DNA of 64,000 nt from positions 107,773 to 171,772 of the forward strand of contig DIXU01000003.1 of assembly GCA_002436105.1 (NCBI GenBank), given 5' to 3'. The position numbers and the translations under genes were made by a program. The DNA comes from Candidatus Aminicenantes bacterium UBA6072 (GTDB lineage: Bacteria > Acidobacteriota > Aminicenantia > UBA2199). Below the pieces are notes generated by a model that saw nothing but the letters and a program-made list of their open reading frames with translations, was not told the origin of the DNA and did not search any database. Below are positions 14,195-35,748 of the stretch, piece by piece. Each line of letters begins with the position of its first letter. Position 1 is the first letter of the stretch.

Positions 14195-14402
14195 GTTCGA
14201 AGTTCGGGGTTCGATGTTCGATGTTTTTAAGAGAGGGCAAAAGAACAAAACAGAGCCAATTCCACGGATTGGACAATCCCTGATTTCTTCTTCCCTCAAA
14301 GTCGAGCTTCGAACGACGAACCTATGGCGTCGTACTCCTCATGGCTCTCGTTTTTTTGCCTTCTTTCTTCAACGTCGAACCTCGAACGTCGAACGTCGAA
14401 CC
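14195..14402. repeat. Inverted tandem-heptamer element A (composite)
   Basis: Left array GTTCGAA GTTCGGG GTTCGAT GTTCGAT (14195-14222). Inner partner GTCGAGC TTCGAAC GACGAAC (14301-14321). Outer array CGTCGAA CCTCGAA CGTCGAA CGTCGAA (14373-14400), the exact reverse-complement unit. Inner purine/pyrimidine inverted core and a CCAAT...ATTGG mini-hairpin. Confidence 0.7.
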
Positions 14403-14415
14403 TGTAGATATTTCA

Positions 14416-14444
14416 TTGACATATATGACCTTATTTGTTAAGAT
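14416..14444 (+). promoter_or_regulatory. Sigma70-type promoter for metK
   Basis: TTGACA (14416-14421), N17, TAAGAT (14439-14444). Leader is about 35 nt with SD GGAGG. Confidence 0.55.
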
Positions 14445-14483
14445 TGAAATTCTCCCAACGCAACGATCTTCCTGGAGGTGAAA

Positions 14484-15641
14484 ATGATCAAGGGGAAATA
14501 TCTGTTCACGTCGGAATCGGTGTGCGCCGGTCACCCGGACAAGGTTTGCGACCAGATCTCCGACAGCATTCTTGACGCCTGCCTGGAGCAGGACCCGGAC
14601 GCGCGCGTCGCCATCGAGGCGGTGACCAAGACCGGCATGGTGCTGGTCGCCGGCGAACTGACCACCAAGGCCTACGTCAACATCCCGACCATCGTTCGCC
14701 AGACCCTCAGGGAGATCGGCTACACCAAATCGCGTTACGGCATCGAGTACGAGACCTGCGCCGTGCTGGTGCACATCGAGGAGCAGTCTCCCGACATCGC
14801 CCAGGGAGTGGACGCGGCCCGGGGCCACGAGCAGGGCGCCGGCGACCAGGGCATGATGTTCGGCTACGCCACCAGCGAGACCCCCAGCTACATGCCGCTG
14901 CCCATCGCCATGGCCCACAAGCTGACGGCGCGCCTGGCCCAGGTGCGCAAGAACAAGACGATCCCCTACCTCGGTCCCGACGGCAAGGCGCAGGTGACCG
15001 TGGAATACGAGAACGGCCGGCCGCGCCGCATCACGGCGGTGGTCGTATCCAATCAGCACGACGACAAGATCCGTCATGCGCGCATCGAGAGGGATATCAT
15101 CCGCCATGTGGTCAAGCCCGTGTGCAGCAAGTGGCTGACCCCCGAAACCAAGTTTTACATCAACCCCACCGGCAAATTCGTCGCCGGCGGCCCCTACGCC
15201 GACGCCGGGCTGACCGGACGCAAGATCATCGTCGACACCTACGGCGGCATGGGCCGGCACGGCGGCGGCGCTTTCTCCGGCAAGGATCCCAGCAAGGTCG
15301 ACCGCTCCGGCGCCTACGTGGCGCGCTACATCGCCAAGAACGTCGTGGCCGCCGGGTTGGCGAGAAAATGCGAGGTGCAACTGGCTTACGCCATCGGCGT
15401 CGCCGAACCGGTTTCGATCAACGTCAACCTGTTCGGGACCGGCACGCTGAGCGAAGAGAGGATCACGGCCATGATCCGCAAGGTATTCCCGCTGAAGCCG
15501 GGCGACATCCTCCGCGAACTCAAGCTCAAGCGGCCGATCTACAAGCAGACGGCTTCCAACGGCCATTTCGGCCGCAGCGAGTTCCCCTGGGAGAGGCTGG
15601 ACAAGGTGAAAGAGCTCAAGGCCTTGGCCAAGAGCAAATAA
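14484..15641 (+). CDS. metK: S-adenosylmethionine synthase
   Basis: [51 protein letters not shown] 14484 is preferred over the track's GTG 14478 because GGAGG sits 5 nt upstream. Confidence 0.95.
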
Positions 15642-15785
15642 CCAGACGTTAGACGTTAGATTTCAGACGTCAGCAAGACAAAGAAAGGCATTGGATGATA
15701 AACAGAGAACGGTTGCAAGAAAATGATGGATGTGTTTTTCCCCCTTCTTGCTAACGTCTAACGTCTGGCATCTGATGTCTGAGAT
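15642..15785. repeat. Inverted tandem-heptamer element B
   Basis: AGACGTT-type heptamers (15642-15677) and GTCTAAC-type heptamers (15747-15785). CCAGACGTTAGACGTTAG (15642-15659) is a perfect inverted repeat of CTAACGTCTAACGTCTGG (15751-15768). Core is AAGACAAAGAAAGG ... CCCCCTTCTTG. It starts right after the metK stop. Confidence 0.8.
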
Positions 15786-15816
15786 TTTTCATGATGAATT
15801 TTTTTAGGAGGACACA

Positions 15817-17241
15817 ATGAAAACCACCGACAAGGATCGCACGCTTCCCCATAAGATCGCCGACATCTCCCTGGCCGACTGGGGACGCAGGGAGATGGAC
15901 CTGGCCCGGGCCGAAATGCCCGGGCTGATGGCCATGCGCAAGAAATACGGCCCGCTCAAGCCCCTGCAGGGGTTGCGCGTGACCGGCAGCCTGCATATGA
16001 CCATTCAGACGGCCATGCTCATCGAGACCCTGGTCGAACTGGGCGCCGATGTGCGCTGGGCCTCCTGCAACATCTTTTCCACGCAAGACCATGCCGCCGC
16101 GGCCATCGCCCAGGCAGGCACCGCGGCCGTCTTCGCCTGGAAGGGCGAAACGCTGGAGGAATACTGGTGGTGCACCGAGCAGGCCCTGACCTGGCCCGAC
16201 GGTTCCGGCCCCGATCTGATCGTCGACGACGGCGGCGACGCCACGCTCCTGGTCCATCTGGGCGTGAAGGCCGAGGCCGACCCCTCCCTGCTGCAGAAGG
16301 AACCGGAGAACAAGGAACTGGGCGTCATCCAGCAAAGGTTGCGCGAATCGCTTGCGCGCGACCCGCAGCACTGGAGCCGCATCAGCAACCGCATTCGCGG
16401 CGTTTCCGAGGAAACGACCACCGGCGTGCATCGCCTCTATCAGATGCAGGCCGAAGGCAGCCTGCTCTTCCCGGCCATCAACGTCAACGACTCGGTGACC
16501 AAATCCAAGTTCGACAACCTCTACGGCTGTCGCGAATCCCTGGCCGACGGCATCAAGCGCGCCACCGACATCATGATTGCGGGGAAGAAAGTGGTCGTCT
16601 GCGGCTATGGCGACGTCGGCAAGGGTTGCGCCCAGTCGATGCGCGGTTTCGGCGCCCGGGTGATCGTCACCGAGATCGACCCCATCTGCGCCCTGCAGGC
16701 GGCCATGGAGGGGTATGAATTGTCCACCATGGACGCCATGGCCCCCGTCGGCGACATCTTCGTCTCCGCCACCGGCAATTGCGACGTCATCACCGGCGCC
16801 CACATGGAGAGGATGAAGGACGAGGCCATCGTCTGCAACATCGGCCACTTCGACAGCGAGATCGACATGCACTACCTGGAGAACACCCCCGGCTGCGCCA
16901 AGACGGTCATCAAGCCCCAGGTGGACAAGTGGACGCTGAGATCGGGGCGCTCGATCATCGTCCTGGCCGAGGGGCGACTGGTCAACCTGGGCTGCGCCAC
17001 CGGCCATCCCAGCTTCGTCATGAGCTGCAGCTTCACCAACCAGTGCCTGGCCCAGGTCAAGCTGGCCAAGGGCGGGCTCGAGAAGAAGGTCTACACCCTT
17101 CCCAAGCAACTGGACGAGGAAGTGGCCCGCCTGCATCTGGACTCCCTGGGCGTGACCCTGACCCGACTGACCCCCAAGCAGGCCGCCTACTTGAATATCC
17201 CCGCCGAGGGCCCGTTCAAGCCCGACCACTACCGCTATTGA
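15817..17241 (+). CDS. ahcY: Adenosylhomocysteinase
   Basis: 474 aa. [23 protein letters not shown]-type N-terminus, [13 protein letters not shown] site, [19 protein letters not shown] upstream. Confidence 0.95.
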
Positions 17242-17258
17242 TCCCGGCAGGAGATGCC

Positions 17259-17287
17259 TTTACTATTTTGTTTTAGTTTGCTATCGT
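17259..17287 (+). promoter_or_regulatory. Candidate promoter giving a leaderless REC-HD-GYP mRNA
   Basis: TTTACT (17259-17264), N17, TGcTATCGT (-10 at 17282-17287), then 7 nt to ATG 17295. Confidence 0.4.
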
Positions 17288-17294
17288 GGGTCCA

Positions 17295-18377
17295 ATGAGA
17301 AAGGGCAAGATCCTCATCACCGACGACGAGAAGGATATCCGCGAGCTGCTTCGCGATTTCCTGGAGAGCGAGGGGTTCGAGTGCCAGCTGGCGGCCAACG
17401 CGTTCGAGGCCCTGGAAAAATTCAAGGCGGACGGTGATATCGACCTGCTGATGTCGGACATCCGCATGCCCGGCAAGACCGGCTTGGACCTCCTGGATGA
17501 GATCAAGGCCCTGAACGAGGACGTGATGGTCGTGATGATCTCGGCCGTCAAGGATATCGAGTCGGCCATTGCCGCCATGTCCAAGGGGGCTTACGACTAT
17601 GTCTCCAAGCCCTTCAAGCTCAACGAGGTCGCGTTTGTGGCCAATAAGGCCCTGGAAAAGCGCCGGCTGGTCATGGAGAACAAGGAATACCAGAAGCAGC
17701 TGGAAAAGATGGTCGAGGAAAGGACCAGCGAGCTGAAGCAGGCGCTGATCGAGCTGGACAAGACCTATAGTTTCACCCTGCGCGCCATGGTCACCGCCCT
17801 CGATACCCGCGACACCGAGACCCAGGGCCATTCCCTGCGCGTGGTGCGCTTCACGCTCAAGCTGGCCGAACTGGCGGGCATTGCCGACAAGAACACCCTG
17901 AAGATCTACGAGTACGGCGCGCTGCTGCACGATATCGGCAAGATCGGCATTCCCGACGCCATCCTGCGCAAGCCGGACAAACTGTCCGCCGATGAATGGG
18001 AGACCATGAAGGAGCATCCGACCATCGGCTACAACATCCTGAAGCGGATCAAGTTCCTCGAAGATGCCGCCCAGATGGTCCTGCACCACCACGAGGCCTA
18101 TGACGGCAGCGGCTACCCCGAGGGGCTGAGCGGCGAGAACATCCCCCTGGGGGCGCGCATCTTCCACGTCGCCGACGCCATCGACGCCATGACCTCCGAC
18201 CGCCCCTACAAAAGGGCGATGGCCTTCGATGCCGCGGCGGCCGAGCTGCTGAATTATTCGGGCCGGCAGTTCGACCCGGAGATCATCGCCATCTTCGCCA
18301 AGACCAGCCTGGACTTCTGGATCGCGGAAAAGGCGAGCATCGAGGACAGTATCCGCCGCGACCGTGAAGGCTTATGA
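17295..18377 (+). CDS. Response regulator with HD-GYP domain (c-di-GMP phosphodiesterase family)
   Basis: REC (ILITDDEKDIREL, DLLMSDIRMPGKTG), then HD-GYP (LLHDIGKIGIPD, HHEAYDGSGYPEGL). Confidence 0.88.
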   Translation: MRKGKILITDDEKDIRELLRDFLESEGFECQLAANAFEALEKFKADGDIDLLMSDIRMPGKTGLDLLDEIKALNEDVMVVMISAVKDIESAIAAMSKGAYDYVSKPFKLNEVAFVANKALEKRRLVMENKEYQKQLEKMVEERTSELKQALIELDKTYSFTLRAMVTALDTRDTETQGHSLRVVRFTLKLAELAGIADKNTLKIYEYGALLHDIGKIGIPDAILRKPDKLSADEWETMKEHPTIGYNILKRIKFLEDAAQMVLHHHEAYDGSGYPEGLSGENIPLGARIFHVADAIDAMTSDRPYKRAMAFDAAAAELLNYSGRQFDPEIIAIFAKTSLDFWIAEKASIEDSIRRDREGL

Positions 18378-18833
18378 TCCCGGCGCAGCGCCGCGAAAGT
18401 CGAATTCATAGACCCGGGCGTCCTCGCTAGGCCGGCAATAATAGTCTTTCCGCCTGCCGACCAGGCGGAAGTGATGCTTTTCGTACAGGCGGATGGCTGC
18501 GGCATTGGACTCGCGCACCTCCAGCACGGCGCGCTCGCAACCCCAGGAACGTCCCATATCCAGGAAATGCTTCAACAGGCTCTCGCCCATGCCGCGCCGC
18601 TGCCGGTCGCGGCGTACGGCGATCTTGTGCAGCTCCAGTTCACCGCCCAGCCGCCAGAACAGAAGATAGGCCGCGATCTCCCCTGCCGGAGCGGCCGCAG
18701 CGACATGGAAATGAGCCAGGCGGTTGCCCAGCTCGGCAGCGAAATACTCCCGGTTCCAGGGGTTGGAGAACTGCTGGCGCTCGATGATTTCCACGGCGTC
18801 GAGGTCGGCGGATTGCGCCGGCCTAATCCACAT
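18372..18833 (-). CDS. rimI: Ribosomal-protein-alanine N-acetyltransferase (GNAT)
   Basis: MWIRPAQSADLDAVEIIERQQFSNPW..., and the acetyl-CoA motif RRDRQRRGMGESLL. Downstream of tsaB. Internal Met chosen because the longer ORF overlaps tsaB. Confidence 0.8.
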   Translation of the reverse strand: MWIRPAQSADLDAVEIIERQQFSNPWNREYFAAELGNRLAHFHVAAAAPAGEIAAYLLFWRLGGELELHKIAVRRDRQRRGMGESLLKHFLDMGRSWGCERAVLEVRESNAAAIRLYEKHHFRLVGRRKDYYCRPSEDARVYEFDFRGAAPGS

Positions 18834-19536
18834 CGCTGGAAATGGGCGAACGGCGGGTTTCGGCATCGGGGCGGCGGATATAGAAGGGGTGGAGATCCTG
18901 GGGATCGGTCGTGAACTGCCCGCGCTGAAAACCGGCAAGGGCGATGCGGCCGATTTCGCTGGCCAGGAAATTGGAGCGGACCAAAAGGCGGAATCCGGGG
19001 AAATCGCGGCGCAGCCGGTCGCTGTGGTTCTCGGCGCCGCTGCCGATGAAGACCTTGTCCGGAAGCTCCCCCAGCACCAGCGCAGCCTCCTCCACCTTCA
19101 GCAGGCAAGGGCGGAGCCGTTCGACCATCCGCCCGCCCTCCGGCTGCGCATCGAAGGCATAGGCAGCGGCATAGATCTCGCCCTTGCGGGCGTCGATCAT
19201 GGGCACGATGGTGTGCCGGGTATCGGCGAGCTTGCAGGCCAGCGCCTCCAGGGTGTTCACCCCGACCACCGGCTTGCCGGCGGCCAGAATCAGCCCCTTC
19301 AGCGTCGCCAGCCCCACGCGGATCCCCGTGAAAAGCCCCGGGCCCACGGCGGCGGCGTACAGGTCGATCTGGGACAGCTTCAAGCCCAGGGAGCGCAGCA
19401 GGAACTCCAGGCTGGGGCTCAGCATGGCCGACAGGTCGTCACGCGACGAGAAATTGTATTCCAGGACGATCTCGCCGTCCCGCAGCAGGGCGATGGAGGC
19501 GTCGCGCGAGGAAGTGTCAAAGGCCAGCAGGATCAC
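18823..19536 (-). CDS. tsaB: tRNA threonylcarbamoyladenosine biosynthesis protein TsaB
   Basis: MILLAFDTSSRDASIALL start and GPGLFTGIRVGLATLKGL motif. Confidence 0.88.
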   Translation of the reverse strand: MILLAFDTSSRDASIALLRDGEIVLEYNFSSRDDLSAMLSPSLEFLLRSLGLKLSQIDLYAAAVGPGLFTGIRVGLATLKGLILAAGKPVVGVNTLEALACKLADTRHTIVPMIDARKGEIYAAAYAFDAQPEGGRMVERLRPCLLKVEEAALVLGELPDKVFIGSGAENHSDRLRRDFPGFRLLVRSNFLASEIGRIALAGFQRGQFTTDPQDLHPFYIRRPDAETRRSPISSDVD

Positions 19537-19955
19537 GGGAGCTTCTTTTCCATCACCACCTCGCTGCCGCCGGGCCGGTTGTGGAACTCGAAGCGGTCCA
19601 TGTAACTGCGGATGATCATGATGCCGCGCCCGTTGAAGGATAGCGGGTGGCAGTGGCTGATCTTGTCCTCCACTTCCTGCAGGTCGACCTGGCGGTTGTT
19701 CTCATCGCGAACGCTGATGCGCAGGAACGACCTGTCCCAGGTGAACTCCATATGCACCCGCTTGCTGGGGTCGCGGCCATTGCCGTGGACGATGGCGTTG
19801 TTGGCTGCCTCGCGCAGCGAGATCTCGATCTTGAAAAAAACCTCGTCGGCGATGCCCAGCAGCTTGCGGATGAAGCCGAGCACCAGGACGCTCAATTCGG
19901 TATACTTCAGGTCGCTGCGGAACGAGATCGCGATGCGCTGCTCTTTTTTTGCCAT
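19533..19955 (-). CDS. RsbW/SpoIIAB-type anti-sigma-factor serine kinase (GHKL)
   Basis: 141 aa from MAKKEQ. N-box EAANNAIVHG, G1 VRDEN, G2 NGRGIMIIRSYMD. The longer 230-aa track ORF would run through the divergent promoter. Confidence 0.75.
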   Translation of the reverse strand: MAKKEQRIAISFRSDLKYTELSVLVLGFIRKLLGIADEVFFKIEISLREAANNAIVHGNGRDPSKRVHMEFTWDRSFLRISVRDENNRQVDLQEVEDKISHCHPLSFNGRGIMIIRSYMDRFEFHNRPGGSEVVMEKKLP

Positions 19956-20011
19956 CCGTTCAAGTATAGCAGAACGGAGGGGATTTTGCCACGGAGGCGC
20001 CGCCGGAATGC

Positions 20012-20040
20012 TTGCAAATCGCACCGCGATCCCGTACAAT
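20012..20040 (+). promoter_or_regulatory. Sigma70-type promoter, leaderless geometry
   Basis: TTGCAA (20012-20017), N17, TACAAT (20035-20040), then 6 nt to ATG 20047. Confidence 0.55.
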
Positions 20041-20046
20041 CGCGGC

Positions 20047-21432
20047 ATGGAAAAGAGAGAAGTGGAAAACATCGGCGAGTTTTTTTCCAAGGAGAGCGGC
20101 ATCCTGACCCCGGAAAAAAAGTGGGAGGAGATCTTTTCGGGCTGGCTGGACAAGATCGACCAGGAAAAGATGATGCTCAACCTTTTCGAGCTGAAGCTGT
20201 GGTTCGAGAGCATCGAGGAATTCAACTCATCGCCCTACCTGGAGAACCTGGCATTCCAGCGCCACGCCCCCGGCGAGCGCAACTACGAGTTCTACGTCTT
20301 CGGGCTGCACCAGGCCTCGGCGCGCATCACCGCCCTGCTCAAGGAGCTGGACTTCAAGAAGGACAGCTATTTCCTCAACTTCGAGGAATACGTCGTGGAG
20401 AAGATGCTGGAACAGAACATGGACAAGTCCTTCCCCAGCCTGAAGGAACTCTACTCCCCCGAGTCATGGTTCTACAGCTTCCGCATCTTCCTGCAGAGCT
20501 TCCGCAACCTGCTCAGCGAGATCCTGCGCCTCGACCAGGTCTCGCAGCGTGCCTACCTGTCGATCAAGAAGCTGTACCACCGCGAGCTGCTCAACAACCC
20601 CATCCTGATATCCCTGCTCAAGAAGCAGTTCATCTCCAAGATGGACAAGATCTATCAGCCGGACATCTCATCCATCATCGCCTCCTGCCAGGACAAGATC
20701 CTGCGCAAGAACCTGGGCATCTTCTTTATCCTCTCCTTCCGTGTCCTGAAGATCAACAATTTCATCGAGCTCAACGTGGATAAGAGCAAGTACCTGGACC
20801 TGGTCATCCCTCTGGCCCTTTCCCTGAAGAAGAACATGGATGACCTCATCCACTTCAACGACACGGTCCTGTGGCCGTGCCTGCAATCCAACCCGGAGCT
20901 GAAGAAGAAGCTGGGGCCGATCGGGGACATATTCAAGAGCCTCAAGCTCGAGTACAAGAAGATCTGGGAAGGCGAACTGCCTTTCTATTTCGCCAGCGAC
21001 AGCAGCAAGCTCAAGAAGCGCCAGATGATCCAGAATATCGTGATCATCGCCGAGGTGGCCCTGCAGGAGCTCATCGAGACCCTAGCCCGGCTGTTCAAGC
21101 CCGGCATCCAGGGCAGCAGCATTTTCGAAAAATACGTCTCGCGCAAGCAGAAGTCGATCGAGGTCAAGAAGAAGCTGATCCGCCTGCACACCAAGATCAA
21201 CGATTATTTTGCCCACAGGGAAAGCATCGCTCCCTCCGAGATCTTCTTCGATATCAACCAGTTCATGGAGAGCGACCTGAACTATCTGCTCTACAAGGAT
21301 TGGAACGAATTCCTCGGCTACTACGACAACCTCAGCCGCACCAATTTTTCGGCCGAGTTCGAGCCCACGCTGAGATCGTTCCACAGCTTCCTGACCCGCG
21401 TCCTGAAGGAGATCGTCAGCGAGAAAAAATAG
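20047..21432 (+). CDS. Hypothetical all-helical protein (461 aa), K/F/L/N/S/E-rich
   Basis: Long ORF with strong G/C third-position bias like its neighbours. No motif recognised. The track ORF start (19612) overlaps the opposite-strand kinase gene, so ATG 20047 behind the promoter is used. Confidence 0.6.
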   Translation: MEKREVENIGEFFSKESGILTPEKKWEEIFSGWLDKIDQEKMMLNLFELKLWFESIEEFNSSPYLENLAFQRHAPGERNYEFYVFGLHQASARITALLKELDFKKDSYFLNFEEYVVEKMLEQNMDKSFPSLKELYSPESWFYSFRIFLQSFRNLLSEILRLDQVSQRAYLSIKKLYHRELLNNPILISLLKKQFISKMDKIYQPDISSIIASCQDKILRKNLGIFFILSFRVLKINNFIELNVDKSKYLDLVIPLALSLKKNMDDLIHFNDTVLWPCLQSNPELKKKLGPIGDIFKSLKLEYKKIWEGELPFYFASDSSKLKKRQMIQNIVIIAEVALQELIETLARLFKPGIQGSSIFEKYVSRKQKSIEVKKKLIRLHTKINDYFAHRESIAPSEIFFDINQFMESDLNYLLYKDWNEFLGYYDNLSRTNFSAEFEPTLRSFHSFLTRVLKEIVSEKK

Positions 21433-21543
21433 ACGTCAGACGTTAGACGTCAGTGGTCAGCAAGAAAAGGCTCAGGACATGGTTTTCTACTTCTGGCTAG
21501 CATCTAACGTCTAACGTCTAACATCTAACATCCAACGTCCGAT
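21430..21543. repeat. Inverted tandem-heptamer element C
   Basis: TAGACGTC AGACGTT AGACGTC AGTGGTC AGCAAGA (21430-21466), a short core AAAGGCTCAGGACATGGTTTTCTACTTCTGG, then TAGCATC TAACGTC TAACGTC TAACATC TAACATC CAACGTC (21497-21538). Same unit as element B. The left array begins in the TAG stop codon. Confidence 0.8.
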
Positions 21544-21580
21544 TTTGCCAAGACATCCTCCCTATGCTAAGATTCCCCTG

Positions 21581-24520: not shown

Positions 24521-24533
24521 AAAGGAGCGCCTC

Positions 24534-24914: not shown

Positions 24915-24918
24915 CGAG

Positions 24919-25665
24919 ATGTCGTTTTTCGAGCACCTGGGCGAGTTGCGCAAGCGCATCGTCTGGTCGCTGGCCTTTGTTTTCCTGTTCTTCCTGGCCT
25001 CGTGGACCGTCGTCGGCAAGCTCTATCACTGGCTGTCGCTGCCGGTGCTGAAATTCCTCCCTCCCGGTCCCGGCGGCGAGTCCAAACTGGCCTTCACCTC
25101 GCTGGCCGAGCCCTTCATGATGTACATCAAGGTGGCCTTCATCTCCTCGCTGTTCGCCGCCTCCCCCTTCATATTCCACCAGCTCTGGCTCTTCATCTCG
25201 CCGGCCCTGTTCCCCAAGGAGAAGCGCTGGGTCGTCCCCTTCGTCTTCGCCACCACCTTCTTCTTCCTGCTGGGCGGCGCGTTCGGCTATTTCATCGTCT
25301 TTCCCCTGGCCTGCAAGTTCTTCCTGGACATCGGCAGCGACTTCACGGCCATCATCACCATCAACGACTATTTCGCCCTGGCTTTCCGCGTCCTGTTCGG
25401 CATCGCGGCCCTCTTCGAGCTTCCCGTCCTGGTCTTCCTGCTGGCCAAGCTGCGCATCGTTAGCGCCCGTTTCCTGCTGCGCTATTTCAAGTACGCCATC
25501 GTGGCCATATTCGTGCTCGCCGCCGTCGTCACTCCCACTCCCGACATGATCACCCAGACGCTGTTCGCGGTGCCCATGATCCTGCTGTACCTGCTGAGCA
25601 TCCTGATCGCCAGGATCGTGAACCCCGGAGAAAAGGAAGAAAAGGGAAGAGAAAGGGAAGAATAA
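24919..25665 (+). CDS. tatC: Twin-arginine translocase subunit TatC
   Basis: MSFFEHLGELRKRI start and six TM segments. An alternative start is 24895. The C-terminal tail EKEEKGREREE is encoded by the left arm of repeat D. Confidence 0.9.
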   Translation: MSFFEHLGELRKRIVWSLAFVFLFFLASWTVVGKLYHWLSLPVLKFLPPGPGGESKLAFTSLAEPFMMYIKVAFISSLFAASPFIFHQLWLFISPALFPKEKRWVVPFVFATTFFFLLGGAFGYFIVFPLACKFFLDIGSDFTAIITINDYFALAFRVLFGIAALFELPVLVFLLAKLRIVSARFLLRYFKYAIVAIFVLAAVVTPTPDMITQTLFAVPMILLYLLSILIARIVNPGEKEEKGREREE

Positions 25666-25760
25666 GGGAAGAGAAAGGGAAGAGAGAGTGGGAAAAACCA
25701 GCGAAGCTTCTTTCTCACTTTGTTTTCCCTCTGCCTTCCCTCTCTCTTCCCTCTCCCTTC
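25628..25760. repeat. Inverted tandem-repeat element D (11-nt purine unit)
   Basis: About four GGGAAGAGAAA units (25628-25697), core AAAAACCAGCGAAGCTTCTTTCTCAC, then TTTTCCC TCTGCCTTCCC TCTCTCTTCCC TCTCCCTTC (25723-25760). The left arm overlaps the last 38 nt of tatC. Confidence 0.65.
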
Positions 25761-25761
25761 A

Positions 25762-25791
25762 TTGACAGCCACCCCTTCTTAATGGTATATT
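25762..25791 (+). promoter_or_regulatory. Sigma70-type promoter for tRNA-Ala
   Basis: TTGACA (25762-25767), N18, TGgTATATT (extended -10, 25786-25791), about 20 nt before the tRNA. Confidence 0.55.
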
Positions 25792-25810
25792 GGCCTCCAG
25801 TCGACCGTCC

Positions 25811-25881
25811 GGGGCCATGGTTTAATGGGAGAACGCGACCTTCGCAAGGTTGAGATGGCGGTTCGATTCCGCCTGGCTCCA
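25811..25881 (+). tRNA. tRNA-Ala (anticodon CGC)
   Basis: Hand-folded cloverleaf. Acceptor GGGGCCA/TGGCTCC with the G3:U70 alanine identity pair. D arm GTTT-AATGGGA-GAAC. Anticodon arm CGACC-TTCGCAA-GGTTG. T arm GGCGG-TTCGATT-CCGCC. Discriminator A. CCA is not encoded. Confidence 0.85.
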
Positions 25882-25921
25882 TAGGAATCAATCTCAACGA
25901 TCTCACTGCTGGTAAGATGGG

Positions 25922-26051
25922 GTACCATGGATCACGTGCCGCTTCCCATGTTCAAAGCCAATTTTCTGCAAGCACCAGTGTTCTTCAACGTGGAACCTGG
26001 AACATGGAACGTGGAACCTGGAACGTGGAACCTGGAACGTGGAACCGGCAA
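25922..26051. repeat. Inverted tandem-heptamer element E (strong right array, decayed left array)
   Basis: Eight NTGGAAC-type units (CGTGGAA CCTGGAA CATGGAA ...) at 25989-26044 plus one degenerate unit. An upstream weak complementary array TACCATG GATCACG TGCCGCT TCCCATG TTCAAAG lies at 25922-25956. Core is CCAATTTTCTGCAAGCACCAGTGTTCTTCAA. Confidence 0.6.
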
Positions 26052-26110
26052 CAGAACTATTGCCTCTGTAGTTTCGTACTTACGCTTGCTAGATCAATAG
26101 GAGGTTACTA

Positions 26111-28198: not shown

Positions 28199-28222
28199 GG
28201 TTTTCAAATCGCGCCAATGAAA

Positions 28223-28255
28223 GGCGGGGGCCCGCGCCCCCGCCTTTTTTATTTT
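28223..28255 (+). terminator. Rho-independent terminator of the S46 peptidase gene
   Basis: GGCGGGGGC-ccgc-GCCCCCGCC followed by TTTTTTATTTT. Confidence 0.75.
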
Positions 28256-28283
28256 GCGGCCAGGCGCTCGACCAACAGAAAGT

Positions 28284-28319
28284 AAAAAGGGCGGGGCACA
28301 GGCCCCGCCCTTTTCATTT
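28284..28319 (-). terminator. Rho-independent (bidirectional) terminator of the S9 peptidase gene
   Basis: GGGCGGGGC-acag-GCCCCGCCC (28289-28310), flanked by AAAAA on one side and TTTTCATTT on the other. On the minus strand it is followed by a T-run. Confidence 0.7.
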
Positions 28320-28343
28320 CAGGCGAAAATTACAGAAGCGGGC

Positions 28344-30302: not shown

Positions 30303-30464
30303 GGGTATCCTCCTTGATGAAGTCTATACATAAAACGTTGGCCGGGAGCATCCGGTTTCTTTTCCAGGCCGCATTCTTGATTTTTTGCCGGGGACGCGAT
30401 CCGCTGCGCCTACCGGGAATCCTCCACCCTGTGTTCGGCGCGCCATTCCCTGCCCGGCATGGCT

Positions 30465-31448
30465 TCAGGAAAGCAGGCCGGGCAGCGCGGCCTCGACCTC
30501 GCGCCAGTGCGCCGCGTCGAGTTTGGCGCCCACCACCTCGACCACTTTGCCCGACAGCAGGGAGCCGATGCGGCCGCAAACGGGCAGCGCATATCCCCGG
30601 ATCATTCCGTAAAGAAAACCGGCGGCGTAGAGGTCGCCGGCGCCGGTCGTGTCGATGGCCCGGGCCGGAATGCATTCGACGCGGTGTTCCTCGTTCTTGC
30701 GCTTGAGCAGGGAGCCGTTCTTGCCCAGCTTGACCACGGCGATGCCGCAGCAGGGCGAGATGCTGACCAGGGCGTCGGCGGGCGAGTTTTTCCCGCTGAA
30801 GGCCATTGACTCGTCCTCGTTGGCGAAGACGATATCGACATAGCCGCCGACCATCTCCTGCAGGAAGGCCAGGTTCTCGCGCACCACGTTGTGGCTGGCC
30901 AGGTCGAGCGAAACCACCAGGCCCGCCTTCTTGGCCAGGCGCAGGGCCGTTTCGGCCAGCGGATGGTTCTGCGCCATGTAGCCCTCGATATGGAAATAGT
31001 CGTAACCGCGGAACAGCTCCTCCGAGAGGTCGGCGGCCTCCAGCTCCACCGCCGCGCCCAGGAAGGTGGCGAAAGTGCGCTCCGAGTCGGGGGTGATGAA
31101 GCCCAGGGCCCGCCCGGTCTGGGCGGTGCCGGGAAACAGGCGGGCCCTTATGCCATGGCGCTCCATCTCGGCGGCGAAGAACTCTCCGTAGCGGTCGCGG
31201 CCGATCTTGCCGATGTAGCCGGAGGGCACGCCCAGGCGCGCCAATCCGCTGATGGTATTGGCTGCCGAGCCGCCGCATGCCTCCTGCTTCTCCAGGTGCG
31301 ATATCCTGTCCAGGATGGCATTGACCTGCTCCTCGCGCACCAGGGTCATGCAGCTTTTGGGCAGGTCCAGCGAGCCCAGCAGCGCGTCATCGTCGATGCG
31401 CACCAGGATATCGACCAGGGCATTGCCCAAACCGAGCACTTTTTTCAT
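30465..31448 (-). CDS. PfkB-family carbohydrate/nucleoside kinase (adenosine-kinase-like)
   Basis: 327 aa. GGSAANT and DTTGAGDLYAAGFLYG motifs. Confidence 0.85.
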   Translation of the reverse strand: MKKVLGLGNALVDILVRIDDDALLGSLDLPKSCMTLVREEQVNAILDRISHLEKQEACGGSAANTISGLARLGVPSGYIGKIGRDRYGEFFAAEMERHGIRARLFPGTAQTGRALGFITPDSERTFATFLGAAVELEAADLSEELFRGYDYFHIEGYMAQNHPLAETALRLAKKAGLVVSLDLASHNVVRENLAFLQEMVGGYVDIVFANEDESMAFSGKNSPADALVSISPCCGIAVVKLGKNGSLLKRKNEEHRVECIPARAIDTTGAGDLYAAGFLYGMIRGYALPVCGRIGSLLSGKVVEVVGAKLDAAHWREVEAALPGLLS

Positions 31449-31481
31449 GGTTCTCCCTCGGGGCGGTCGCGGCCGCGCTCC

Positions 31482-31850
31482 TTACAGTTTCGTGTGGGTG
31501 ATCTTCTCGACTTCGTTCCCGTCGCCCATGGTGAGGATGGTGGCGCTGAGCGAGTTCAGTTCCTTCTCGTCGAGCAGGGCATAGGCGGCGATGATGACCA
31601 GGTCGCCGGGATGGACCAGGCGGGCGGCGGCGCCATTGACCACGATGCCGCCCGAGGCGCGCTTCCAGGGCAGGACATAGGTGGACCAGCGCCGGCCGTT
31701 GTTGACGTTGTAGACATCGACTTTCTGGAAAACGCGCAAGCCGGCTTTTTCCATGATCTCTTCGTCGATGGCGATGCTGCCCTCGTAGTGCAGGTCGGCT
31801 CCGGTGACGGTGGCCCGGTGGATCTTGGCGATCAGGTACGGGATCAGCAT
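31482..31850 (-). CDS. panD: Aspartate 1-decarboxylase
   Basis: KIHRATVTGADLHYEGSIAIDEE, including the Gly-Ser self-processing site. Confidence 0.93.
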   Translation of the reverse strand: MLIPYLIAKIHRATVTGADLHYEGSIAIDEEIMEKAGLRVFQKVDVYNVNNGRRWSTYVLPWKRASGGIVVNGAAARLVHPGDLVIIAAYALLDEKELNSLSATILTMGDGNEVEKITHTKL

Positions 31851-32701
31851 TTTATCTCTCCTGAAAGAGTATTGTCGATCAGGCGCGTCCTGCCGGCGCG
31901 AACGGCGGCGGCGACCAGGGTATTCCCCGGCTCGACCCTGGCGGTCTCCTCCAGGTCGTCCAGGCGGACAATGGCGATGTAATCGACCGCCAGCAGGGGC
32001 TGGCGGGCGATCTCCGCCCTCATGGCCGCGCGCAGGGCCCGGGAATCCCTCTCCCCCGCCTCGATCAGCGCCCGGGCACGCCGCAGCGCCTTGGGCAGGG
32101 CGAGGGCCGCGCGGCGCTCCTCGTCCGAGAGGAAGACGTTGCGTGAGGACAGGGCGAGGCCGTCGGCGTCGCGCACGATGGGCAGGACGCGCAGGCGCAC
32201 GGGCAGGTTCAGGTCGCGGATCATCTGGGCGATGATGCGCGCCTGCTGGGCGTCCTTCTGCCCGAAGTAGGCCCGCTGCGGTTGCAGCAGCATGAAGAGC
32301 TTGAGCACCACGGTGGTTACGCCACGGAAGTGGCCGGGTCGCGAGCGCCCGCAGAGCTTGCCGTCCAGCCCCGTGACATCCACCCAGGTGCGGAAGTCCG
32401 GGGGGTAGATCTCGGCGTCAGCGGGGATGAACAGGACATCCACTCCCTCGCGCCGCAGCTTGGCGGCGTCCTGCCGCGGGTCGCGCGGATAGCGCCCCAG
32501 GTCCTCGCCGGGGCCGAACTGGGAGGGGTTGACGAAAATGGAGACCACGGTCAGATCGTTTTCGCGGCAGGAGGCGCGCACCAGGCTGAGGTGTCCCTCG
32601 TGCAGGTAGCCCATGGTGGGCACGAAGCCCAGCCGGCCTCTCGCGGGGATCGGGGCGGCAAGAGCCCGGCGCAGGCTGGCGATGGTCCGGCAGGTCTTCA
32701 T
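31844..32701 (-). CDS. panC: Pantoate--beta-alanine ligase
   Basis: GFVPTMGYLHEGHLSLV (HIGH-like) and FGQKDAQQ motifs. Start at MKTCRT overlaps the panB stop (ATGA). Confidence 0.9.
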   Translation of the reverse strand: MKTCRTIASLRRALAAPIPARGRLGFVPTMGYLHEGHLSLVRASCRENDLTVVSIFVNPSQFGPGEDLGRYPRDPRQDAAKLRREGVDVLFIPADAEIYPPDFRTWVDVTGLDGKLCGRSRPGHFRGVTTVVLKLFMLLQPQRAYFGQKDAQQARIIAQMIRDLNLPVRLRVLPIVRDADGLALSSRNVFLSDEERRAALALPKALRRARALIEAGERDSRALRAAMRAEIARQPLLAVDYIAIVRLDDLEETARVEPGNTLVAAAVRAGRTRLIDNTLSGEIKC

Positions 32702-33543
32702 CGCAGGAACTCGTCGATATCCAGCTTCAGGTGGTAGCTTTCGCCATCGCTGGGGAAACTGCCGCCCTGGACATCGCGGATATAGCTCTGCAGGGCGCCG
32801 AGCCAAAGGGTGCGGGTATCGGCGTACTTGCGCACGAACTTGGGCATGTAGAGGTCGGTGAAGCCCACCAGGTCGTGGAAGACCAGGATCTGGCCGTCGC
32901 AGCCGCTGCCGGCGCCGATGCCGATGGTCGGGATGCTCAGGTCGGCAGAGATCCTCCGCGCCAGTTCCTGGGGGACCGACTCGAGCACGACGGCGAACAC
33001 GCCGAGCTTCTCCAGGTCAAGCGCATCCCGGTGGATCTCGCGCGCCTTTTCCCGCAGCTTGCCCTGCACCTTGAAGCCGCCCAGTGCATGCACCGACTGC
33101 GGCGTCAGCCCCAGGTGGGCCAGGACCGGGATCTCGGCATCGAGAAGGGCCTCGATCACCCGGAAGCGCTTGCGCCCCCCCTCCAGCTTGACCGCCTCGG
33201 CCCCCCCCTCCTTCACGCAACGGCAGGCGTTCTCCACGCTGCGCTCGATGCCGCCGTGGAACGATCCGTACGGCAGGTCGCTGACCACCAGCGGCAGCGG
33301 CTCGGCGCGGGTGACCAGCGAGGTGTGGTAGACGATTTCGTCCAGGGTCACCTTCAGGGTATTGGCGTGCCCCTGCAGGACCATGCCCAGGGAGTCTCCG
33401 ACCAGGATCAGGTCGATGCCGGCTTCAGAGGCCAGGCGGGCGGTCGGGTAATCATAGGCCGTGACCGCCGCGATCTTCTCGCCGCGCGCTTTTTTCCGCC
33501 CGAGAGTCAGGGCCGTCTTCTTTTCCAGGTCAGGCTGGGGCAT
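32698..33543 (-). CDS. panB: 3-methyl-2-oxobutanoate hydroxymethyltransferase
   Basis: TAYDYPTARL, LVGDSLGMV, VKLEGG and GHLGLTPQS motifs. Confidence 0.93.
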   Translation of the reverse strand: MPQPDLEKKTALTLGRKKARGEKIAAVTAYDYPTARLASEAGIDLILVGDSLGMVLQGHANTLKVTLDEIVYHTSLVTRAEPLPLVVSDLPYGSFHGGIERSVENACRCVKEGGAEAVKLEGGRKRFRVIEALLDAEIPVLAHLGLTPQSVHALGGFKVQGKLREKAREIHRDALDLEKLGVFAVVLESVPQELARRISADLSIPTIGIGAGSGCDGQILVFHDLVGFTDLYMPKFVRKYADTRTLWLGALQSYIRDVQGGSFPSDGESYHLKLDIDEFLR

Positions 33544-34264
33544 AATAGCTGTTCCCCTTTTTGTGGTTCTTGATCTCGTGGATCAGGCCGTCGATGTCCT
33601 TGCGGCTGTTGAAGTCGATCTTCTCGACGTTGACCACCAGCAGCGGCGACAGCTTGTAGTTGAAAAAATAGTAGTTGTAGGCCTCGAAGATCTCCCGCCA
33701 ATATTCGCTGGGGACCCTCTTTTCGTACTCGCTCCCCTGCTTGTGGATGCGCTGCAGCATCTCGGCGAACGAGGTTTGCAGGTAGACGACCAGGCTGCAG
33801 GGATGGATGCGCTCGGCGAAAATGCCCAGGATGCGCTTGTAGATGTCCAGGTCCTCGTCGTTGAGCACGGTGTGGGCGTAGATGCCGTCCTTGTAGAAAA
33901 TATAATTGGCGACCATGGTCTTCTGGAACAGGTCCTTCTGCTTCATCTCCAGCTGCTGGTTGAAGCGGTTGATCAGGAAGATGAGCTGGGTTTTGAGGGC
34001 CAGCGGATTGTAGCCGGAGGAGAATGATTCGTAATAATCCTTGAGGAAGGGGTTGCCCTGGCCCTTGAGCCCGGGCCGGGAAGGGTCGGCGAAGGGGGGC
34101 TGGCCCTGGCCGCCGGGGCCGGGCCGGGCGTGCTGGACCACGGAGTACTCGCCCTGATTGTCGAGGAACAGGCGGGCCTTGAATTCCTCGGCCAGAATCC
34201 GGGCCAGCTTCGTTTTCCCGGATTTGACCAGACCCTCCACGGCGATGTACTTGAGATCGGTCAT
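33530..34264 (-). CDS. Deoxynucleoside-kinase-family protein
   Basis: P-loop IAVEGLVKSGKT at the N-terminus and dNK-like length, with a Gly/Pro-rich insertion (HARPGPGGQGQPPF...). Confidence 0.7.
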   Translation of the reverse strand: MTDLKYIAVEGLVKSGKTKLARILAEEFKARLFLDNQGEYSVVQHARPGPGGQGQPPFADPSRPGLKGQGNPFLKDYYESFSSGYNPLALKTQLIFLINRFNQQLEMKQKDLFQKTMVANYIFYKDGIYAHTVLNDEDLDIYKRILGIFAERIHPCSLVVYLQTSFAEMLQRIHKQGSEYEKRVPSEYWREIFEAYNYYFFNYKLSPLLVVNVEKIDFNSRKDIDGLIHEIKNHKKGNSYYAPA

Positions 34265-34272
34265 CGGGCCTG

Positions 34273-34301
34273 ATTATATCATGCGCGGGCCGGGCTGTAA
34301 A
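34273..34301 (-). promoter_or_regulatory. Candidate promoter giving a leaderless dNK-panBCD mRNA
   Basis: Minus strand reads TTTACA (34301-34296), N17, TGaTATAAT (-10 at 34278-34273), then 8 nt to ATG 34264. The -35 lies in the loop of an 8-bp hairpin (34288-34312) following glyA. Confidence 0.45.
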
Positions 34302-34325
34302 TCGGCCCGGCCGGGCGCCGCAGGC

Positions 34326-35618
34326 TCACACGTACTGCATTTCCAGGAAACGCGACCGCAGCTGGTTGACCTTGTCCTTGACCTGCTTGCCCCGAATGGC
34401 CCCGGCCATGAGCTCGCCCAGCTCGGCGAAATCCTTCTCCTTCATGCCGAAGCGGGTCATTTCCGGGGTGCCGATGCGCAGGCCCGAGGGGTTCTGGGCG
34501 TCGGTGTCACCGGGGAGCATGTTGTAGTTGCAGATGACATCATTGGCCTCCAGGGCCAGCGCCGCCTTGACGCCGCCGCCGAATGAGGCGACGTTGACCG
34601 CGATCTGGTGCGAGCGCGTATAGCCGAACTCCCTGGCCTCGACGGGAATGCCGCTGGCCTCCATGGACTTGGCCAGCGCCACTGCGTTCCTGCAGATCTG
34701 CTCGGCATAGTCCTTGCCGTGGGCCTTCATCTCGCGCGCTGCCACCAGCAGGGCCGGCAGGCTGTAGAGGTGGTGGTTGGAGGAAGTTCCCGGGAAGACG
34801 CCGCGGTCGGCGGCCGACCAGTATTTCTTCTCCCCATCGGCGTCCAGGTTGGCCAGGATCACACCGCGCTGGGGGCCGGGAAAGGTCTTGTGGGTGCTGC
34901 CGGTGAGCCAGGTGGCCCCCTCGGCCAGCGGGTCCTGGAACTGGCCGCCGGCGATCAGGCCGAGGACATGGGCGCCGTCGTAGAGAATGGGAATCTGCAG
35001 CTGGCGGCACAGAGGGGCCAATTCCCTGACCGGGTCGGGGAACAGGTAGAGGCTCTTGCCCATGACCAGCAGGTTGGGCTTGACCTCCTCGATCAGATCG
35101 AGCGACTTGGCCACGTCGATATGATAGCGGTCTTCGGTCAGGGGGAAGAAGCTCAGCTTGACCGAGTTCTCCTTGCCGGGCTTCAGCACCTGTCCGCGCA
35201 TCTGGATGCGCCGGCCCATGATGCCGAAGAAATTGTGGCTGATATGGCCGCCGGCGTCGGTGGAGTTGGCGATGACCGCGTCGCCGCCGCGCAGCCAGGC
35301 CATGGCGATGGCCGTGTTGGCGTTGTTGCCGCTGTAAGGCCGCACCTCGGCCTGGGCGCAGCCGAACAGCTCGCGCATCTCGCGGGCGGCCATGGTCTCG
35401 ATCTCGTCGATGAATCGTGTCCCCTGATAATAGCGGTTGATCTTGTCCGGGGTGTTGGGGTGGCCTTCGGCATAGCGGCCCATGAAGTCGTTGAGCTGGA
35501 TGGAACGCACCGCCGGGCTGGGCGTGTTCTCGCTGGCGATCAGGTTGATGCATTGCCTGCCCCGCCATTCGTTCTGCTTCTCGACTATGGCGAAAATGTC
35601 TTTCGTGTCAACGGGCAT
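34326..35618 (-). CDS. glyA: Serine hydroxymethyltransferase
   Basis: 430 aa. LIASENTPSPAV, and the PLP-lysine region GSTHKTFPGPQRG. Confidence 0.93.
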   Translation of the reverse strand: MPVDTKDIFAIVEKQNEWRGRQCINLIASENTPSPAVRSIQLNDFMGRYAEGHPNTPDKINRYYQGTRFIDEIETMAAREMRELFGCAQAEVRPYSGNNANTAIAMAWLRGGDAVIANSTDAGGHISHNFFGIMGRRIQMRGQVLKPGKENSVKLSFFPLTEDRYHIDVAKSLDLIEEVKPNLLVMGKSLYLFPDPVRELAPLCRQLQIPILYDGAHVLGLIAGGQFQDPLAEGATWLTGSTHKTFPGPQRGVILANLDADGEKKYWSAADRGVFPGTSSNHHLYSLPALLVAAREMKAHGKDYAEQICRNAVALAKSMEASGIPVEAREFGYTRSHQIAVNVASFGGGVKAALALEANDVICNYNMLPGDTDAQNPSGLRIGTPEMTRFGMKEKDFAELGELMAGAIRGKQVKDKVNQLRSRFLEMQYV

Positions 35619-35667
35619 GTGACCTCCTGGTTTTGACGTGATATTCTTATAAGAAAAAAGCTTGCGG

Positions 35668-35748
35668 AATCAGTGATGAGTGATGCGTGATGAGTGATGA
35701 GAAACAGCGAGCCAACATCGTGCTTTTCTTTCCCATCACTATGGATCG
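35668..35748. repeat. Tandem-heptamer element F (asymmetric)
   Basis: AATCAGTG ATGAGTG ATGCGTG ATGAGTG ATGAGAA (35668-35703), core ACAGCGAGCCAACATCGTGCTTTTCTTTCC, then only CATCACT ATGGATC (35733-35746) as the complementary partner. It lies between the rpiB stop and the glyA start. Confidence 0.55.

Follow-up and report, generated by a model that had tools for sequence, protein, structure and literature searches.

Repeat elements at gene ends in the window

The window, a 64,000-nucleotide stretch of the Candidatus Aminicenantes bacterium UBA6072 genome (contig DIXU01000003.1, positions 107,773 to 171,772), carries six loci with short tandem repeats next to genes such as ggt, metK, tatC, tRNA-Ala and rpiB, designated E1 to E6 and lying at 14.2, 15.6, 21.4, 25.6, 26.0 and 35.7 kb, respectively. 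An earlier note, made from the sequence alone, had described them as six elements with one architecture, in which tandem copies of a 7-nt unit (11-nt in one case) are followed by copies of its reverse complement. Using Tandem Repeats Finder (TRF) for array detection, we recovered tandem arrays at all six sites, with period 7 at 14193–14225/14371–14401, 15643–15673/15751–15766, 21431–21453/21503–21539, 25987–26046 and 35672–35701, and with period 11 at 25628–25685/25725–25760; TRF found no further period-7 array in the 64 kb. The repeats exceed chance in the window, which holds seven period-7 arrays of at least three copies, whereas 50 first-order Markov resamples contained 15 in total (0.3 each, with a maximum of 2), and six were found in 512 kb of control loci, taken without selection around MetK genes from other phyla. 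On a gene map derived from codon usage, which agreed with the genes called on contigs carrying an identical MetK, all of the arrays were intergenic except for 38 nt of tatC that lie under the left arm of E4.

In E1–E4, outer tandem arms surround a unique inner stem, purine-rich on its 5′ side and pyrimidine-rich on its 3′ side, with a variable centre of 12 to 85 nt. E1 (14195..14402, plus strand) is a composite hairpin 3′ of ggt (stop codon 14186–14188), consisting of a left arm of five GTTCGAN units (14195–14228), a 5′ inner stem AAGAGAGGGCAAAAGAACAAAACAGAGCCA (14229–14258), an 83-nt central insert (14259–14341) that holds a degenerate second right arm (GTCGAGCTTCGAACGACGAACC), a 3′ inner stem TGGCTCTCGTTTTTTTGCCTTCTTTCTT (14342–14369) and a right arm of four NGTCGAAC units (14370–14402). 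The inner stem has the sequence AAAACAGAGCCA...TGGCTCTCGTTTTTTT, with T7 after it, but encloses the 83-nt insert. E1 folded at −87.1 kcal/mol (z −6.6), a value equalled by none of the 200 dinucleotide shuffles that served as control for the z-scores. A pyrimidine motif of the insert, CCCTGATTTCTYCTYCYTCCC (14285–14310), recurs at 4196–4220 of L004 (L numbers denote fetched loci), a more distant Aminicenantes metagenome-assembled genome (MAG), where it lies in the loop of a hairpin 3′ of metK; no other intergenic copy was found among the fetched loci.

E2 (15644..15783, plus strand) lies 3′ of metK (TAA 15639–15641) and comprises four AGACGTY units (15644–15671), an inner stem of AGCAAGACAAAGAAAGGC (15672–15689) and TTTTTCCCCCTTCTTGCT (15735–15752) around a loop at 15690–15734, and a right arm of RACGTCT and variants (15753–15783), followed by A-TTTTT, which is kept in the relative L280. 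It folded at −48.7 kcal/mol (z −4.6) and contains a perfect 18-nt inverted repeat. E3 (21430..21540, plus strand) follows a 474-aa orphan gene whose TAG stop codon forms the first three bases of the array; three to four AGACGTY units (21430–21458) and five to six TAACRTC units (21499–21540) flank the inner stem AGCAAGAAAAGG (21459–21470) and TTTTCTACTTCTGGCT (21483–21498), with the loop at 21471–21482, and the element, which contains inverted repeats, folded at −37.3 kcal/mol (z −5.3). E4 (25627..25760, plus strand) is the 11-nt-unit hairpin and overlaps the 3′ end of tatC. The first 38 nt of its purine arm, five copies of GGGAAGAGAAA at 25627–25695, encode the C-terminal tail of TatC (stop codon 25663–25665), and the arm is followed by the loop AACCAGCGAAGCTTC (25696–25710) and a pyrimidine arm (25711–25760). 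The fold of E4 (−59.5 kcal/mol, z −2.8) was equalled by one of 200 shuffles. No T-run adjoins the stem in E3 or E4. The last ~13 codons of tatC (25628–25665; tail GEKEEKGREKGRIR) thus come from the purine arm of E4, and the same is seen in the relatives L289 and L290.

E5 and E6 are essentially one-armed arrays with at most a vestigial partner. E5 (25988..26046, plus strand) is a single array of 8.6 NTGGAAC copies upstream of an S46 peptidase gene (start codon 26111), with only a degenerate candidate for a partner arm at ~25925–25960 and a small hairpin, GGCAACAGAACTATTGCC (26047–26064), directly 3′ of it. E6 (35672..35744, minus strand) lies between rpiB (stop codon 35780–35782, minus strand) and glyA, encoding SHMT (start 35618); in the direction of transcription it consists of a short left arm, GTGATGG, with the purine-rich GGAAAGAAAAG, then GCTCGCTGTTTCTC, and a right arm of four ATCACTC units (35701–35672, minus strand). 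Neither hairpin was significant against dinucleotide shuffles (z −0.1 for E5; z −0.8 and −0.7 on the two strands for E6), so that the inverted architecture proposed for all six loci, and the better-than-shuffled folding expected of it, apply to E1–E4 (z −2.8 to −6.6) and not to E5 and E6.

The semi-conserved core that the earlier note placed between the arms did not withstand the comparison with chance, as the window contains AAACAGMGA two times where 0.63 would be expected, a number equalled in 14 of 100 shuffles. Where it is present (E1, E6 and elements in L281 and L291), it is the 5′ half of the inner stem, with its complement CGCTGTTTCT opposite; likewise, the 'core' of E6, AAACAGCGAGCC, complements the 3′ half of the stem, which is rich in pyrimidines. 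Tracts of three G are absent from the units GTTCGAN, AGACGTY, NTGGAAC and ATGAGTG and occur only in E4 (GGGAAGAGAAA), spaced by 8 nt. The only match in the window at the Rfam 15 gathering score was tRNA-Ala, and in E-value mode E4 gave sub-threshold look-alikes of microRNA hairpins. Integron attC sites, CRISPR and riboswitches were dismissed, considering that the elements accompany housekeeping genes with their own promoters, show no alternation of spacers and repeats and have no Rfam match. A HutP-like ring-shaped RNA-binding protein with NAG recognized every 7 nt would fit the UAGACGU units but not the others.

The left arms of E1–E4 start 0–6 nt past the stop codon of the upstream gene or overlap it. 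By contrast, E5 begins 106 nt past tRNA-Ala and ends 64 nt before the next start codon, and the well-formed array of E6 lies 78–108 nt downstream of the rpiB stop codon; the claim that every copy starts at or near an upstream gene end is therefore restricted to the four two-armed elements. On the other side, the gap to the next start is ~33 nt for E2 and 81 nt for E1, and E4 ends 50 nt before the tRNA-Ala(CGC) gene (25811–25881). Three right arms abut promoter-like sites on the plus strand. The metK site TTGACA-17-TAAGAT (14416..14444) begins 13 nt past E1, the site TTGCCA-17-TAAGAT (21545..21573) begins 4 nt past E3, and the tRNA-Ala site TTGACA-18-TATATT (25762..25791; 11/12 match) begins 1 nt past E4. 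The metK site is kept in all relatives, whichever unit precedes it.

A consensus scan found no canonical GC-hairpin/T-run terminator at the gene ends bearing E1–E4, as the earlier note had stated. Elsewhere in the window, two canonical GC-hairpin and T-run terminators face each other at 28219–28248 (plus strand) and 28316–28283 (minus strand), where the S46 peptidase gene and an S9/S15 peptidase gene converge, indicating that this genome does use textbook terminators. The first 60 nt of array-bearing gene ends folded less stably than those of other ends (−0.20 vs −0.32 kcal/mol per nt, p 6e-6), which indicates that they do not carry the compact local hairpin found at the other ends. Across 13 Aminicenantes loci, arrays occurred in ~29 of 96 co-directional spacers, in none of 22 divergent spacers and never inside genes (Fisher p 0.0017); four array spacers were reclassified to co-directional in this census, because spurious antisense gene calls had made them appear convergent or divergent.

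Turnover of the elements in related genomes

We recovered ten syntenic contigs through MetK and S46-peptidase protein clusters together with exact look-ups. The window MetK was 87% and 78% identical to the MetK of two Candidatus Aminicenantes MAGs, and an identical MetK is encoded on contigs of JGI 3300001567 and SRR5323176; ERZ27315071 is a further sample with this organism. Comparison of these contigs showed that the elements turn over fast at orthologous spacers. In the ggt–metK spacer the unit is GTTCGAN in the window, AGACGTY in L280 (MetK 96% identical), GTGACRA in L281 (93%) and ACGGCNN in both L282 (92%) and L284 (91%), while L286 (92%) has only an 11-bp hairpin, AAGTTCGAAC/ATCGAACTT. 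The metK–ahcY spacer carries AGACGTY in the window and L280, GTGACNA in L281, L282 and L284, a lone left arm in L003, and no array in L286, where it measures 48 nt. The spacer between the orphan gene and the GGDEF gene holds a hairpin of AGACGTY, ACGGCNN, CGTGACG, CGTGATT or CGTTATG units in eight genomes, and L286 has a plain GC hairpin there. Despite these replacements, an element was present in six of seven relatives at metK–ahcY and in eight of nine at orphan–GGDEF. The statement that the arms vary from copy to copy yet remain self-complementary thus holds from one locus to another and also where orthologous loci of close relatives are compared.

Array lengths vary across L280–L290, in agreement with the unit-number variation that the earlier note had proposed to look for. 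The E5 site holds eight NTGGAAC copies in the window, six in L289, three in L288 and none in L290, and the ATCACTC array of the E6 site is present in L288 and L289 and absent from L290, whose rpiB–glyA spacer is 29 nt long. The E4 element is kept at the tatC locus in L289 and L290, and L290 also contains a half copy of the 11-nt element. Some elements are nested. An 11-nt-unit element with the E4 inner stem lies inside a TTCCAAN hairpin 3′ of ahcY in L284 but not in L282, the inner stem AGTGGGAAA...TTTCYCACT being common to E4 and the L284 copy, and in L281 a CGTTATG hairpin lies within an ACGGCNN hairpin. L289 and L290 further carry ACGGCNN elements as insertions in the spacer from tRNA-Ala to the S46 peptidase gene. 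The inner stem AGCAAG...CTTGCT is common to AGACGTY-arm elements at three different loci (E2, E3 and the E1 site of L280) and in two other MAGs (L182 and L087); these same-arm copies share the arms and 6 bp of inner stem only, and their interiors are unrelated.

L286 (JGI 3300069939 Ga0619461_07120597) has no arrays in 19.6 kb, whereas sister contigs have ~1–5 per 10 kb, and it carries plain hairpins of −11 to −22 kcal/mol directly after the same three stop codons. The lineages of L284, L289, L290 and L143 count as array-rich. The difference between L286 and its sisters suggests that a lineage-specific factor controls the formation or removal of arrays.

Three further observations were made on these contigs. 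With tatC and the S46 peptidase gene as reference, the tRNA-Ala(CGC) gene together with its TTGACA-18-TATATT promoter (25762–25881 of the window) is inverted in L288 (~9740–9890) and L291 (~9660–9800), but not in L289 or L290. In L287 (ERZ27315036 k141_125606, 1–11161) the ggt–metK spacer, including E1, was identical to that of the window when the two were compared directly, and the upstream gene coordinates agree with those on the contig of the window. Its MetK shares only 85% identity, and a different set of genes (priA and others) follows downstream; L287 is either a chimeric assembly or has a recombination breakpoint inside metK. The spacer between an M48 peptidase gene and a 210-aa gene, both on the minus strand (10463–10912 in the window; 5984–6491 in L281, 6068–6402 in L282 and 6184–6505 in L284), contains in the relatives repeated 16–18-bp palindromes of the form TGTCCCAnnnTGGGACA, which are degenerate in the window. 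Because a sigma-54 activator gene (6404–7771) lies nearby, these palindromes may be activator binding sites.

Heptamer arrays in other phyla and comparison with known systems

Two multi-phylum samples were analyzed, one selected with AGACGTY (L083–L199) and one with a scrambled unit, ACAGGTY (L292–L411), amounting to 0.83 and 0.86 Mb of fetched DNA (~1.7 Mb together). A three-unit AGACGTY scan over one genome per species returned, among the matches listed, Gemmatimonadota, Acidobacteriota, Bacteroidota, Gammaproteobacteria, Actinomycetota and other phyla, and arrays of the scrambled ACAGGTY occurred on at least 120 contigs from many phyla. The idea that AGACGTY is a special or horizontally spread unit was rejected, because the scrambled unit behaves alike and only six viral contigs carry AGACGTY arrays. 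The two samples contained 250 and 304 period-7 arrays, against 8 and 8 of period 5 and 8 and 29 of period 8, so that period 7 exceeds periods 5 and 8 by 10–30 fold in array-rich loci, and many unrelated 7-nt units occur in both. Units made of a 6-bp palindrome (GACGTC, TTCGAA, CACGTG or CGTACG) plus one base, which would be expansion-prone, were not preferred, as a 6-nt palindrome occurs in 14 of 106 distinct units compared to 15.7 ± 3.0 after shuffling at constant composition. Neighbouring arrays within 400 nt were reverse-complement pairs in 34 and 31 cases, direct pairs in 10 and 16, and unrelated in 75 and 95.

The enrichment at gene 3′ ends, which the earlier note had expected, holds in the Aminicenantes loci and in both of these independent samples. 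In the AGACGTY sample (93 loci), 27% of the co-directional spacers had arrays, as had 50% of the convergent and 13% of the divergent ones; the corresponding shares in the ACAGGTY sample were 29%, 41% and 23%. In co-directional spacers the median distance from stop codon to array was 5 and 13 nt, and that from array to start 71 and 32 nt. In units of co-directional spacers, the stop triplets TAA, TAG and TGA were confined to the sense strand in 89 cases and to the antisense strand in 51 (p 0.0017), while composition-matched control triplets showed no significant strand bias. Within each unit family the arms kept a nearly constant order from phylum to phylum (45 vs 9 overall), as [AGACGTY]..[RACGTCT] and [ACAGGTY]..[RACCTGT], although both this bias and that of the stop triplets rest on crude gene calls or on two selected unit families. 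A fixed arm order is a property of the palindrome and independent of strand. A purine-first arrangement as a sign of transcription direction was rejected for the same reason, the arm order being unchanged by reverse complementation, and beyond the two selected unit families the purine-first rule was not significant (10 vs 7).

Several known families of repeats resemble these elements in part. Repetitive extragenic palindromic sequences and bacterial interspersed mosaic elements (REP/BIME) of enterobacteria and pseudomonads are palindromic, cluster 3′ of genes and are mosaic or nested, with several families per genome and proposed roles in 3′-end protection or termination; they measure 20–40 nt, carry a 5′ GTAG-type motif and are linked to RAYT transposases. 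The Aminicenantes elements are likewise extragenic palindromes 3′ of genes, mosaic and nested, but their arms are tandem repeats and no motif is conserved at the outer ends across families. In eukaryotic Foldback elements, the inverted termini are themselves tandem repeats. Inverted termini, dispersed copies, presence or absence between relatives and nesting are shared with Foldback elements and with MITEs (inverted-repeat transposable elements of miniature size), whereas no target-site duplications were found, the interiors are not conserved and no related autonomous element was seen. REPINs have been described (PMC3116915), as has a MITE with an internal minisatellite in Porphyromonas (PMC4596501).

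A closer likeness is found among heptamer repeats. Their over-representation in some bacterial genomes has been reported since 2007, when a survey, as far as the accounts citing it go, found heptanucleotide repeats to be the commonest long simple sequence repeats (SSRs) in many bacteria and proposed polymerase slippage as their origin (cited in PMC4692102 and PMC4679880). Rehm et al. (2015; PMC4692102) counted 186 GGGAATC arrays in Xanthomonas campestris, with 70 convergent inverted pairs, and 70–75 such pairs per genome in X. campestris and X. axonopodis that can form stem-loops. The mean distance of the Xanthomonas arrays is 28 nt to the upstream and 160 nt to the downstream open reading frame. 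They are found mostly between co-directional open reading frames and are transcribed; their position is conserved between species while length and sequence vary (PMC4692102). E1–E4, but not E5 and E6, share the convergent complementary arrays within a few hundred nucleotides, and E1–E4 and the arrays of the wide samples are likewise nearer the upstream gene end than the next start. The Xanthomonas arrays are dominated by one G-rich unit that was read as G-quadruplex-forming (PMC4692102), whereas the Aminicenantes window has at least five unrelated units in 22 kb, most of them without G-tracts, and further differs in its unique inner stems, nested copies and wholesale replacement of units at orthologous sites. 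The cyanobacterial short tandemly repeated repetitive (STRR) sequences and long SSRs, in the parts of the literature accessible through PMC4692102 and PMC4679880, show the same dominance of period 7, intergenic location and patchy taxonomy, with an origin by slippage proposed; the window, too, holds head-to-tail 7-nt copies above chance in intergenic DNA with unit-number variation among relatives. The cyanobacterial descriptions, including that of Calothrix, deal in those parts with single direct arrays and do not focus on inverted pairing or stop adjacency, and in Nostoc few heptamer pairs are inverted (PMC4692102). In marine Beggiatoaceae, direct TAACTGA repeats of two to six copies are intergenic and occur in scattered lineages; they resemble ours in being heptamers between genes, but a single unit is involved, which closely precedes start codons and has forward orientation, and an inverted case was seen in only one of 170 sets (PMC4679880). 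Regulatory roles for heptamer repeats have been discussed speculatively (PMC4679880; bioRxiv 10.1101/2022.06.06.494920). The earlier note had named the STRR of heterocystous cyanobacteria as the only comparable case known, a statement that the 2007 survey and the Xanthomonas pairs contradict. Our literature search found no mention of heptamer repeats in Aminicenantes or of AGACGTY arrays. We conclude that the Aminicenantes elements are a local example of a widespread, already noticed class of heptamer arrays and hairpins at gene 3′ ends, and not a new kind; what is new is another phylum, with several unit families side by side.

Origin and possible role of the repeat hairpins

The explanation that we favour, with about as much doubt as confidence, is that repeat hairpins generated by slippage occupy the terminator slot and probably act there as putative terminators or insulators. 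The loci would be heptanucleotide (in one case undecanucleotide) SSR arrays of the kind over-represented in the intergenic DNA of particular lineages, and at four of them the sequence from the stop codon to the next −35 box is predicted to form one long imperfect hairpin. We infer that the arrays lengthen and shorten by replication slippage in 7-nt steps. Intrastrand template switching, or else copying from another locus, would create or maintain the likeness of the two arms, which point mutation would then erode. Now and then an element would also be copied to another spacer or into another element's loop, and expansion would continue until constrained sequence is met, a stop codon on one side and a promoter on the other. 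In the transcript, the hairpin would most likely serve as a terminator, a read-through barrier or a protection of the 3′ end, and would insulate the upstream transcription unit from the promoter abutting the right arm. This assignment to the terminator slot draws on the lack of a compact hairpin at array-bearing gene ends, on the ordinary hairpins of the array-free L286 and on the right arms that abut promoters. Like intrinsic terminators, the hairpins lie right after a stop codon and right before the next promoter, with an inner stem that is A-rich on its 5′ side and T-rich on its 3′ side, and a relative has ordinary hairpins in the same places; unlike them, E1–E4 have stems of 20–40 pairs with many mismatches and centres of 12–85 nt rather than a compact GC-rich stem. 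Intrinsic terminators also include hairpins that lack a U-tract and promoter-coupled terminators (bioRxiv 10.64898/2026.08.19.745784), and the abutment of right arm and next promoter resembles the latter.

Several observations weigh against this explanation. Known intrinsic terminators have far shorter stems and far smaller loops than E1–E4, and a T-run lies close to the stem in E2 only. The one-armed arrays (E5, E6 and most arrays of the wide samples) show the same 3′-end bias without hairpins, so that position could reflect tolerated insertion rather than function. Paralogous copies that share inner stems at different loci need copying between loci beyond slippage. The orthologous spacers counted in the Aminicenantes census are non-independent data points, and the multi-phylum gene calls were crude and self-trained. 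Lastly, when 26 elements were aligned with themselves on the sense strand, 860 positions were Watson-Crick, 47 were G·U, 80 were A·C and 145 held transversion mismatches (~24% mismatches in the stems), that is, no excess of G·U over A·C, and RNAalifold on orthologous trios gave one compensatory pair per alignment and several broken pairs.

Since no G·U excess was seen, the wobble signature of a selected sense RNA is lacking, and both this excess and covariation at the nucleotide level were rejected as evidence for RNA structure in the elements. The apparent covariation is, on these alignments, best read as wholesale replacement of both arms together followed by decay, which points to a generative process; the complementarity looks generated rather than selected pair by pair. 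Of the two origins that the earlier note had offered for the changing but self-complementary arms, generation by a hairpin is accordingly the one favoured, and selection for it finds little support in the pair counts.

The arrays could instead be neutral filler, functionless slippage products in unconstrained DNA whose inverted pairs arose from template switching at small pre-existing palindromes. We consider this somewhat unlikely, although much agrees with it. The arrays span the interval from stop codon to next promoter as if expanding up to a constraint, they are depleted where two promoters share a spacer, the stems decay with transversions as common as transitions, one-armed arrays have the same positional bias, and some relatives dispense with arrays (L286, and L290 with its 29-nt rpiB–glyA spacer). 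However, most relatives keep an element at metK–ahcY and orphan–GGDEF despite full sequence replacement, a persistence that the deletion bias of bacteria would not lead one to expect, unless elements regenerate very fast; moreover, array-bearing gene ends have no other hairpin, and the sense-strand preference for stop triplets hints at a strand-specific constraint. The shared arms and inner stem at unrelated loci and genomes (E2, E3, the L280 ggt–metK spacer, L182 and L087), the nested 11-nt element of L284 with the half copy in L290, the nested CGTTATG element of L281, the different families in one spacer among close relatives, the patchy density between sister lineages (0 to 12 arrays per 10 kb) and the fixed arm order across phyla would instead suit non-autonomous mobile elements of MITE-, REP/BIME- or foldback-like type, in which the arms would be terminal inverted repeats or would offer hairpin substrates to an enzyme whose gene lies elsewhere in the genome. 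That origin is unlikely in our judgement, considering that comparable orthologous spacers, inspected by eye, showed no target-site duplication or clean empty/filled site, that same-arm copies have unrelated interiors and no terminal motif is conserved across families, and that copy-number ladders arise in situ. The arrays and inverted pairs formed by a scrambled heptamer in many phyla also fit a general mutational process better, and the 64-kb gene map, mostly of syntenic housekeeping genes, holds nothing transposase-like, no protein-family scan of the open reading frames having been made.

The arrays could also act in cis on the downstream gene, as protein-bound repeats or as a promoter context tuned by unit number in the manner of phase variation. 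Right arms that abut −35 boxes, and the positions of E5 and E6 at 53–64 nt before start codons with copy numbers that vary between relatives, agree with such a role, as do the heptamer effects on the recO and recF promoters of Nostoc (bioRxiv 10.1101/2022.06.06.494920) and the upstream TAACTGA repeats of Beggiatoaceae (PMC4679880). It is nevertheless very unlikely, because the units differ between loci, so that no single binding protein fits, because the arrays of the wide samples are nearer the upstream stop than the downstream start and are depleted in divergent, promoter-dense spacers, and because the promoter is conserved while the repeat before it is replaced. Least probable, to the point of being hardly credible, is a role at the DNA level, in which cruciform or slipped structures rather than RNA would act on supercoiling, replication or recombination. 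The arm order and purine-first rule, being invariant under reverse complementation, are properties of a duplex palindrome, no sense-strand RNA signature was seen, and the promoter and tRNA-Ala unit between E4 and E5 is inverted in two relatives; but the arrays are biased toward transcript 3′ ends and not toward a replication landmark, and long imperfect stems with 12–85-nt centres would generally extrude poorly as cruciforms.

A bolder form of the terminator/insulator explanation is that heptamer hairpins are a general, self-renewing barrier between adjacent transcription units in many phyla, with slippage continually regenerating long hairpins in the terminator slot and the array serving at the same time as a universal stop to translation. 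As 3 does not divide 7, any stop triplet comes to stand in all three reading frames once there are three or more units. Improbable as we hold this proposal to be, it would, if true, tie in the sense-strand bias of stop triplets and the fixed arm order, and would imply a lineage-specific on/off factor, given that close relatives range from 0 to >4 arrays per 10 kb.

Returning to hairpins in the terminator slot, the Aminicenantes lineage offers an unusually clear comparative series, with the same five or six spacers across ~10 relatives, running from no array, via a plain hairpin, to multi-unit nested hairpins, while the adjoining promoter is conserved throughout. This series makes testable both termination or insulation by the hairpins and the genomic factor that separates array-rich from array-free sisters. 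For annotation, it means that long repeat hairpins just past stop codons, in many phyla, likely stand where terminators are expected.

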